Assembly (NCBI GenBank): GCA_951406725.2
Contig: OX597834.1
Span: 5,084,001 to 5,148,000 of the forward strand
Direction of reading: 5' to 3'
From: Octopus vulgaris
Taxonomy: Eukaryota
DNA: 64,000 nucleotides
In this document: positions 45,116 through 47,768 of the stretch, one piece after another
Layout: each line of letters starts with the position of its first letter
Position numbering within the stretch: the first letter of the stretch is position 1
Program-made: the position numbers and the translations under genes
Notes under the pieces: generated by a model
The model's database searches: none
The model's input: only the letters and a program-made list of their open reading frames with translations
Told to the model about the DNA's origin: nothing

Positions 45116-45171
<56 letters not shown>

Positions 45172-45338
45172 ATATTTAAAGGGCTAAAAACCACTAAGTG
45201 ATCAGCCGTATGCTAGAATTAGATCACCAACGATCAAACTACAAAGAAAAGAATGTTCTCTAGAGAAAAATTCAGTGGACACCAAAACAATATGCGGAAA
45301 AGTCAGATGAAAATTATATAAAAAAAAACAAGAATTAC

Positions 45339-45413
45339 TCGCAGACCGGCGGTTTCGCCTATTAACTAATGAATCACTTACGTAATCCCTCGTCCGTAGA
45401 CTCGTCAGTGCGA
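45339..45413 (-). ncRNA. Type I hammerhead ribozyme, intact core, extended stem II
   Basis: Minus strand: TCGCA-CTGACGA-GTCTA [35 nt] TAGGC-GAAA-CC gcc GG-TC-TGCGA. Predicted cleavage after GUC. Confidence 0.85.
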
Positions 45414-45572
45414 TCGTTCCACAGGTAATATAATTTTGTTTCCGGAATTTTAGCGCGCCAGAACTCAGACATTTGAAATTAACCCCAATGTAATCTGTGA
45501 AAGTAAGCACGTGTCTGTTTTTATACGGAAAGCTGGTGGTTAGTCTTTATAAATTTATTACCTGTGGAACGA

Positions 45573-45647
45573 TCGCACTGACGAGCCTACGGATGAGGGA
45601 TTACGTAAGTGATTCATTCGTTAATAGGCGAATCCGCCGGTCTGCGA
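45573..45647 (+). ncRNA. Type I hammerhead ribozyme, GAAA>GAAT variant
   Basis: TCGCA-CTGACGA-GCCTA CGGATGA..TCATTCG ttaa TAGGC-GAAT-CCGCCGG-TC-TGCGA. Confidence 0.78.
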
Positions 45648-47768
45648 GTAATTCTAGTTTTTTTATATAATTTTCATCTGTCTTGCCCGCATATTGTTCT
45701 GGTGTCCGCTGAATTATCCTCTAGAGAACATTCTTTTCTTTGTAGTTTGATCGTTGGTGATCTACTTCTAGCATACGGCTGACCACTTAGTGGTTTTTTA
45801 GCTCTTTAAATATACACATGTATTAGAATTGTCTCTGATTTTTCAGATTTTTGTATGCTAGGCTACTGGTTTTAAATTGATATTAATTAAATCAATTTTT
45901 AATTTATCTCCCTCATTATTTAAATGTTAAAATATATATGTATATATATATATATGGCAGGTTCCTGCACAATTGCCCTTCGACAAATTTCACGCAAACA
46001 GTAAGTAATGTAGGTTTTGAATGCGACTCCTTGTAGTTGATCTAACGTTCTAATCTCATTAGTAATTATGCTCAGTAATTATGGTAATTGTTATATAATA
46101 TTGGTTTCAAATTTTAGCACAAGGTCAGAGATTTCTAGGGATAAGCTAAGTCGATTACACCCCCCCAGTGCTCAACTGGTACTTATTTTGTCGACCTAAA
46201 AAATGCAGAATCGACCTCGGTGGAATTTGAACTCAGAACGTAAAGACAGGCGAAATACCACTAAATATTTTACCTGGTGTGCTAACGATTCAGCCGCACA
46301 ATATTTTTGTGCTCCGATATTTTGATGAAGGCTAATTCTGAGTGAAATGTAAATGTATATCTTTGTAAGTGAATGTCTCTGAGTAACAAAGTCTCAGTTC
46401 GAATCTTGTTGTGGCCAACATCCACAATTACTTCAGTCACATCTATAAAATTGTTTGCCTAGCATGCTTTTCTCTTTCAAAATTATTTTACCTTTCATCA
46501 ACCTAAGAAATCATTAGATTATTGGCTAATAACACTATTTACTATAATTTATTTAAGTAAACTAGGAGAACTAACGATTGTTTGATATTTAAATAATAAC
46601 AGACAAACAGGTGAAAATTTAATTACGTCCACTAATTGCAAGTAAGAACCTCTGTCAGTGTTATGACAACTTTATTGGTAAAAACGTATCTGTTAATAAG
46701 ATTATCTTTAAAAACATATATCTCATCATTATATCTAAACAGAATCGTTCGATAAAATGAAAACTAGGAAAAAAAAAAAGAAAAGAAACTGTTTAGATAG
46801 TAGTCCCAATAGCATTAGTATATTTCAGGACATATAGAAGATGTTGAATATAAGGTGTAGCGGCAGACGAAATACGGCTACGCATTTCACCCGGCGTGCT
46901 AACGGTTCTGCCAGCTCGCAACCTTATGATACAATAAGTACCAATAAGCACAGGTGTCGATGTAACTGACTAGACCCCTCTCACGAAAATATGAAGCTGT
47001 GCACCTATGGTAGAGATGTTATTTGAGGGATATTTGACTTCCAGAGGATCGGGCAACAAAGTAAAGACCCCCTGATTGGTTGAAAGGAAAAAGATGGTGG
47101 ATGTAATTCAAGGTAACAAGCTGCAGATGAGAGAGGCAATTAGCTACAAAACATATTACGATACGAAAAGCTTCTAATTGATTTGATCGATTATAACAGT
47201 TTATTGGTATTCGCTTAATCGAATTCTGACAAGCAAAATATGTTATTATATGATGTTAAATATTAAATTACTGTAGAATAACAGCTGTATAATTTTCGCC
47301 TTACTTCGCTTTCGTGTTATGGAAAAACCATCTAATTATTGTTAAGTTGTTTTAGTGGTTGCAGCCATTGTTGATAAGCTTTAGGTTAACATTAATCAAG
47401 CGAACTTTAAATCATTATCTTCGTTTTCATTGTTTGTAGTGATAGGTTTCTAGTACAAAAGTATGTTAATATGTTCTTCGTATTTTAAAGAGACGAGTGG
47501 GAAATTTTAAGGAAATGTGACTGGCGAGTCTAGCTATTAGTGTTTGCACGTGTTATTGTCACGTGTCATGGATGTTGCTGCCGAATGAAGTGGTTGTGAT
47601 TGTACCAGTGTTGTTTATTGGTGATGATGGTAATGGTAGTGGTGGCGGCCGTGTTTCTGTTATGATGTCGATAGTTTCGAATCTTGACACAAGCTCAAAA
47701 CATTCGAGGGAGGAGTAGGTTGATTACATCGAACCCAGGAATTATTCATTTGGATCTTTTCTTTTTCA

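Follow-up and report, generated by a model that had tools for sequence, protein, structure and literature searches.

Near the 45-kb mark of a stretch of AT-rich, animal-type DNA lies a palindrome with a hammerhead ribozyme motif in each arm. The question that this locus raises is whether the palindrome is itself the unit that moves or the product of a more ordinary insertion. The stretch, referred to throughout as the window, is 64 kb in length and contains abundant (TA)n, (CA)n, and (ATT)n tracts as well as short interspersed repeats. The original prediction offered two readings of the element: an inverted pair of pseudo-LTRs (pLTRs) of a Penelope-like element (PLE) that had lost all coding sequence, or a non-autonomous "fold-back retrozyme" that moves as a palindrome. 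The best explanation, with a probability of roughly 0.8, is that the palindrome is an ordinary, decayed PLE-type insertion, made in one event, 5'-truncated, and composed of an inverted pLTR plus a tail. The locus works like an inverted pLTR pair, as the first of the two readings had it, although its coding sequence is better described as never copied, through 5' truncation, than as lost.

Architecture of the locus

The insert occupies about 764 bp (45168-45931) inside a (TA)n tract, with (TA)-rich sequence flanking it on either side, and reads in the order inverted short copy, spacer, direct copy, and tail of 112-114 bp (Table 1). An extent of 45171..45814 had been proposed; the element is larger, the repeat continuing to about 45931, and the tail was missed. 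The internal dimensions had been estimated well. Arms of about 265 bp with about 17 differences were expected, and the BLAST alignment of 268 columns contains 16 mismatches and 3 gaps (92.6%, E 9e-111); the spacer, put at about 114 bp, is 114 bp long. Between the start of the left arm and stem I of its hammerhead are 22 nt, the arm starting on the upstream side. The hammerhead cores of the two arms are 170 bp apart, each reading outwards, and the distance from the hammerhead cut site to the 3' end is 175 and 289 nt for the two ends. No second copy of the 45-kb element was found within the window.

Table 1. Features of the 45-kb element and its flanks, in window coordinates.
Feature	Position	Strand	Basis or detail
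(TA)n microsatellite, left part of probable target site	45117..45163	.	sequence
Candidate 12-bp target-site duplication, left copy, weak	45156..45167	+	identical to 45932-45943
Left arm: the 3' module in a shorter copy, inverted and lacking the tail	45166..45436	-	BLAST
Type I hammerhead, intact core	45339..45413	-	C3 at 45408; cleavage triplet GUC 45346-45344
Spacer: a repeat in its own right, natively upstream of the hammerhead	45437..45550	+	bridging contig pieces
Right arm, part of the direct copy	45551..45819	+	BLAST, contigs
Type I hammerhead, core GAAA changed to GAAT at 45633	45573..45647	+	stem I 45573-77/45643-47
3' extension (tail), direct copy only; most abundant part of the family	45820..45931	+	contigs
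Right (TA)-rich target remnant, includes candidate duplication 45932-45943	45932..45954	.	sequence

The 12-mer of the candidate target-site duplication is of low complexity and occurs 18 times in the window, counting both strands. Both arms have changes of their own, including one in the core and one in stem II, and at the site matching 45787 they share a T that is in the minority, other letters making up 75-91% of the depth in public contigs; the two observations together point to one origin followed by independent, neutral decay. An octopus calibration quoted in PMC13282606 equates a JC distance of 0.09 with about 25 million years, and the arm divergence of 0.062 would correspond to roughly 8-9 million years only if the host and rate of that calibration apply.

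A reverse transcriptase (RT) or GIY-YIG gene tied to the family was not found in the collections scanned, so we infer PLE membership. The 114-codon stop-free frame at 45202-45546 has no Pfam match, and in a protein search confined to lengths of 62-200 neither of its two candidates scored. A gapped exact pattern of the element had three matches in viral contigs; all three fall in one phage-like coding stretch that is otherwise dissimilar to the element, and they were rejected. A second exact pattern had no match in viral contigs, and two exact patterns each had none in metagenome and prokaryote genome contigs.

Introns are common in PLE terminal repeats. A possible splice donor at 45648, just after stem I, and a possible acceptor at 45847 in the tail would delimit a candidate intron some 200 nt long. 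Contigs that extend upstream of 45433 form a loose end before the spacer, and this contains AATAAA and terminates like a splice acceptor.

The hammerhead folds

Each arm contains a type I hammerhead, as had been predicted. The minus-strand copy, read from 45413 to 45339, has the core CUGACGA / GAAA / GUC, and the plus-strand copy (45573-45647) has GAAU in place of GAAA. By the type I definition (CUGANGA, GAAA, NUH, three stems, open helix I), the minus copy and the majority of the family are complete and the plus copy is not. Positions such as C3, N7, A9, and the G10.1-C11.1 pair are given in hammerhead numbering. A strict type I descriptor, run on the 64-kb window and on 60 block-shuffled windows, gave two matches in the window (the minus copy and one at 27189) and none in the 60 shuffles, and a descriptor relaxed by one core mismatch gave three matches versus none in 5 shuffles. 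The Rfam hammerhead models, a check proposed with the original prediction, returned no hammerhead at the locus either at the gathering threshold or at E values up to 10, probably because of a 35-nt insertion in stem II. The low-score Rfam miRNA matches were discarded as the (TA)n tract.

Public contigs indicate which of the two cores represents the family. In all four runs aligned, A accounts for 100% of the depth at 45633, so the family has an intact core, from which the plus copy departs by mutation. Core variation among the 40 of 81 variant places listed is confined to the free N7. Eight listed variant places lie in or near stems I and II: six keep the pair, one breaks an end pair, and one adds a pair. 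Among these variant places, the shares of 45575 G>A across the four runs (0.25, 0.37, 0.58, 0.69) track those of its partner 45645 C>T (0.27, 0.32, 0.56, 0.58), which suggests covariation, with the reservation that the shares are unphased and that both positions are in CpG.

The expected intramolecular closure of stem III did not hold up. Its predicted intramolecular pairing probability is 0.00 in both copies, and the stem (45633-45641 in the plus copy) is a near-perfect 9-nt palindrome with a predicted self-duplex energy of -10.2 kcal/mol; it is therefore of the dimer type. As a monomer, the minus copy is predicted to reach -14.7 kcal/mol in the hammerhead fold versus a minimum free energy (MFE) of -23.1 kcal/mol, a separation of 8.4 kcal/mol. 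The basal pairs of its stem II have a predicted probability of 0.01, and the middle helix is damaged by a G-A mismatch. As a dimer, its hammerhead fold is predicted at -40.4 versus a cofold MFE of -51.4. From these folding models, the intact minus copy would be expected to self-cleave poorly.

The long stem II

Stem II of the element (45585-45629 in the plus copy) is 45 nt long, consisting of a 5-bp base and a 35-nt extension. Its predicted layout is 5 bp, an internal loop, 6 bp, a bulge, 7 bp, and a GUAA loop, with the upper helices in the register 45592-97/45617-22 and 45598-604/45609-15. Folding gives -17.8 kcal/mol for the plus copy, with 0 of 500 shuffles as good, and -12.3 kcal/mol for the minus copy, with 2 of 500 as good. 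The 35-nt extension had been recognized from the outset; the helix CGGATGA/TCATTCG then assigned to it does not stand, as it needs T45594, a letter private to the dead plus copy (C makes up 99-100% of the depth in three DNA-like or unlabelled runs). This three-helix stem II of 45 nt is the one unusual feature of the locus; Rfam misses it, although the large family retains it under several organism labels. A long stem II of this kind is not described in the literature examined, within a limited search of the relevant sections.

In other respects the motif resembles the metazoan PLE pLTR hammerheads of Cervera and de la Pena (2014; PMC4209133), which are likewise of type I with a 5-bp helix I, a G10.1-C11.1 pair, and a small palindromic helix III, and occur in opposite-strand pairs 100-700 bp apart. 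The dimer-type palindromic stem III is described there for metazoan hammerheads. The longest helix II among the 56 PLE-type examples aligned in that source is 23 nt, a figure limited by the descriptor used, compared with 45 nt and three helices here. The extra base after A9 is lacking in the present motif, as it is in 2 of the 56 published examples, and helix III is larger here than in the minimal motif (PMC4209133).

The Naiad PLEs share the (TA)n target with the element (PMC8557442). The "HHR_half_core" motif of eight Naiad families, one of them from octopus, has its halves 35-50 nt apart, and the spacing here is 45 nt; the half-core cases are not reported as complete folds, whereas all three stems are present here (PMC8557442). 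Four short exact motifs of the element had no match in the supplement of PMC8557442 that holds the Naiad consensus sequences, and by eye the 3' ends of the two octopus Naiad consensuses given there look unrelated to the element. A supplement to a paper on octopus repeats likewise contained none of the motifs searched for, though it includes no sequence library.

The family in public contigs

Public contigs from 4 of 24 runs were aligned to 45385-45928 at 82% likeness. The runs containing part of the element (20 of 24 listed) carry four organism labels, and none contains half of its words; no run with an RNA label is among them. Matching contigs number 1232, 1045, and 738 in the three runs that are DNA-like or unlabelled, under organism labels A, C, and D, and 188 in X11, a run guessed to be RNA. 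The details that follow come from a listed subset: 32 pieces out of 3231, 24 loose ends out of 414, and 40 variant places out of 81.

The family that emerges is present in high copy and is mainly asymmetric: it consists of spacer, hammerhead, arm, and about 112 bp beyond the right arm, in a unit of at least 495 bp. The spacer-to-arm junction 45550/45551 is bridged by 7 of the 32 pieces listed, with 31 or more letters on either side, at 8-15% difference from the window and in all four runs, and the arm-to-tail junction 45819/45820 by 4 of the 32. The junction of the left arm with the spacer is bridged by none of the 32 pieces listed (of 3231), although it may recur in a minority of copies, and at 45433 five contigs run on into other sequence. 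The loose ends behind 45925 are mixed (13 contigs, agreement 0.47), as at the end of an element.

Seven of the nine joints listed change strand. Each lies at a separate place and is carried by one contig with a depth of 11.7-21.6, which is that of single-copy-like pieces. One contig, from run X1, has its inversion joint at 45437/45542, nine bases from the 45437/45551 joint of the locus itself; it may derive from this same ancient insertion, mark a hotspot, or come from a palindrome that has spread. Go-back joints number none among the nine listed. Movement of the palindrome as a unit is therefore improbable, and the proposal of a fold-back retrozyme moving as such largely fails because most other copies lack the symmetry and have their inversion points elsewhere.

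The 3' part of the family is in excess. Relative to the hammerhead, summed depth (which is not copy number) is 12-17 fold in the mid-arm and 17-60 fold in the tail, an excess to which diverged subfamilies with matches confined to that part may contribute. Shortly before stem I, at 45557-45564, depth steps up 5-10 fold, and the left arm and the 27166-27506 fragment described below begin 22 and 18 nt upstream of their own stem I. Copies may tend to start at the upstream edge of the ribozyme or, alternatively, local divergence may account for the step. In run X1, depth drops to 155 at 45542-45556, compared with about 900 and about 3000 beside it, and the spacer and hammerhead may therefore be joined in only part of the family. 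Recurrent loose ends at 45774-45794 in several runs are suggestive of related subfamilies with other 3' parts.

Origin of the palindrome

Under the favored explanation, a single retrotransposition event by a Penelope-like RT/endonuclease would have put about 764 bp into the (TA)n tract. Reverse transcription would have begun at the 3' end of the element and passed through the tail, the post-ribozyme sequence, the hammerhead, and 114 further bases before stopping, leaving the copy 5'-truncated. A second, shorter copy of the 3' module would then have been placed head to head with the first, ending about 114 bases short of it, by fold-back of the cDNA or by a second priming; the minus strand of the locus reads as though cDNA had folded back and then been copied from itself. 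The primer for such a fold-back might have been an inverted match occurring naturally upstream of the spacer, an idea that would draw on a loose end of five contigs with a median of 14 letters. Both arms would afterwards have decayed neutrally. The parent hammerhead probably cuts weakly, either as a dimer through the palindromic stem III or with the help of protein, and the hammerhead at this locus is most likely silent. The parent itself was somewhat more probably an autonomous element than a short non-autonomous derivative.

Much of this scheme has published counterparts. The insertion figures of PMC8557442 and PMC3846280 document PLE insertions with an inverted 5'-truncated copy and a one-sided tail. 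In the accounts of a purified PLE given in PMC11167929, two RT start sites account for the tail, and the hammerhead cuts only with protein. For Schistosoma, PMC4209133 (2014) describes dual hammerheads that lie 100-700 bp from each other on opposite strands and links them to truncated PLEs, and the legend of its Fig. S4A describes a truncated PLE with a second hammerhead on the opposite strand. In the 5'-truncated insertions of EN+ PLEs, a shorter inverted copy likewise stands head to head at the 5' end (PMC8557442 Fig. 2; PMC3846280), and the 3'-biased abundance and the hammerhead in the repeat are shared as well, as probably are the extension at one end and the microsatellite target (PMC8557442, PMC3846280). 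The hammerhead of the present element lies in the terminal repeat and away from the 3' end, and its 5' truncation comes with an inverted adjoining copy whose joints, among those listed, fall at variable points; both are PLE traits. The tail of about 112-114 bp here, as opposed to 30-40 bp in the EN+ PLEs in print, and the weak target-site duplication speak against the PLE reading, and no open reading frame was found here or linked to the family, another difference from those insertions as presented in PMC8557442 and PMC3846280.

A mobile palindrome would be a non-autonomous fold-back retrozyme in which the antisense arm controls cleavage, perhaps forming a small subfamily. This is improbable, as is, to the same degree, a version with a fixed point (45437, partner 45542-45551) at which copying of the hammerhead module would preferentially turn back on itself, the product spreading as a palindrome. 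The closeness of the X1 joint to that of the locus would fit such a unit, but six other inversion joints among the nine listed lie elsewhere, the left junction goes unbridged in the pieces listed, and the family extends beyond the right arm only. The likeness of the arms (6% difference) is no greater than neutral decay gives, and the ribozyme would be buried in about 250 base pairs of read-through RNA. Retrozymes of animals, in the descriptions available in PMC7229834, are direct tandem repeats, and the listed joints contain no go-back case. Metazoan non-LTR retrozymes do resemble the element in being non-coding, PLE-related repeats with a type I hammerhead and a dimer-type stem III (PMC7229834; bioRxiv 10.64898/2026.07.22.740005, in the portions dealing with these repeats). 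They form direct tandem repeats of 150-450 bp and yield circular RNA, according to the same portions; the present element, by contrast, is inverted, shows no tandem arrangement or go-back joint among the nine listed, and has a unit of at least 495 bp.

Inversion at the DNA level, whether in a long-TIR MITE or foldback DNA transposon with a hammerhead or through an inverted duplication of a single inserted copy by later repair, has slightly lower odds again. Long, near-perfect arms, a TA-rich target, and the further short inverted-repeat pairs in the window would all be in keeping with it. The family, however, is asymmetric, 3'-biased, and extended past one arm, unlike a TIR element; identical terminal inverted repeats with symmetric ends, the mark of MITE and foldback copies, are not seen throughout the family; and head-to-head inversions at many points are the pattern that the insertion descriptions of PMC8557442 and PMC3846280 document for PLEs. 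Two separate insertions of the same family, the second targeted head to head to the AT-rich sequence of the first, seem very doubtful. Purified PLE protein does cut AT-rich DNA in its own pLTR (PMC11167929, in the cleavage assays described), and the 6% arm difference falls inside family variation; against this, the two arms have in common the minority letter at 45787, and the inner junction lacks a target duplication.

Use of the locus by the host as a source of double-stranded RNA for ADAR editing or Dicer is the least credible of these alternatives, with very little probability. The thermodynamic part of the original dsRNA proposal is borne out: a read-through transcript would form a hairpin of 251-258 bp, predicted at -439.8 kcal/mol versus -322.9 kcal/mol with the ribozyme forced, a gap of 117 kcal/mol. 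Any pair of inverted pLTRs would fold in this way, however. The two arms have both gathered mismatches, neither an exon nor a promoter was identified near the locus, and nothing specific to the locus points to selection. Variant places in X11 (A>G 5, T>C 10, versus 3-4 and 9-11 in the other runs) pool all copies and are uninformative on editing. The one-event PLE insertion remains the preferred account of the palindrome.

Other features of the window

A second type I hammerhead with an intact core is predicted on the plus strand at 27184-27277. Its stem II is 61 nt long (-15.4 kcal/mol, 2 of 500 shuffles as good), and its stem III is a 12-nt palindrome with a predicted self-duplex energy of -18.9 kcal/mol. 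The motif lies in a solo 340-bp fragment (27166-27506) between two (TA)n tracts, which begins 18 nt upstream of stem I, and it was not reported by the window-wide Rfam scan. Homology between the downstream part of this fragment and the 45-kb element, suggested by eye, was rejected: the alignment score of 63.5 compares with 58.4 +/- 6.9 in shuffles, 224 of 1000 of which scored as high.

A GIY-YIG-like remnant at 17191-17514 (+), with an Atlas score of 0.95 and no Pfam match, is unlinked to the 45-kb element and shows that such elements occur in the genome. A degenerate motif resembling a minimal hammerhead, at 16914 (-), lies head to head with this remnant, and the region 16860-17560 may be a further PLE copy whose 5' end is inverted. 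Further degenerate hairpins led by CTGANGA and resembling PLE minimal hammerheads occur at 9093 (-), 9117 (+), 13081 (-), and 21697 (-), the first two head to head and 24 bp apart.

The inverted-repeat pairs at 4291-5131, 13826-14274, and 47754-48082 have arms of 66-168 bp at 78-92% and are possibly MITEs or paired SINE pieces. A 5S rRNA-like sequence at 56309-56415 (+; 53.9 bits) is probably a pseudogene or a 5S-derived repeat. Several fragments of a reading frame like that of a non-LTR retrotransposon (9556-9861, the 12775 region, and 51754-52587) stand beside long (ATT)n tracts.

Significance of the long-armed hammerheads

The palindrome itself adds little, as it follows a published PLE pattern; the stem II extension is a candidate binding site for the protein of the element. 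With the second hammerhead at 27184-27277 and its 61-nt stem II, at least two families in this window have long-armed hammerheads, one paired with an inverted copy and the other solo. It is possible, though less likely than not, that a hidden class of PLE-type hammerheads with stem II arms of 45-61 nt exists in this animal lineage and is missed by Rfam and by short-stem descriptors. If true, such a class could explain some of the PLE families reported to lack a ribozyme. If the long-stem-II motifs cleave, censuses of hammerheads in animal genomes would be missing members, and re-examination would be warranted for the PLE families that Craig et al. (PMC8557442) list as "half-core".
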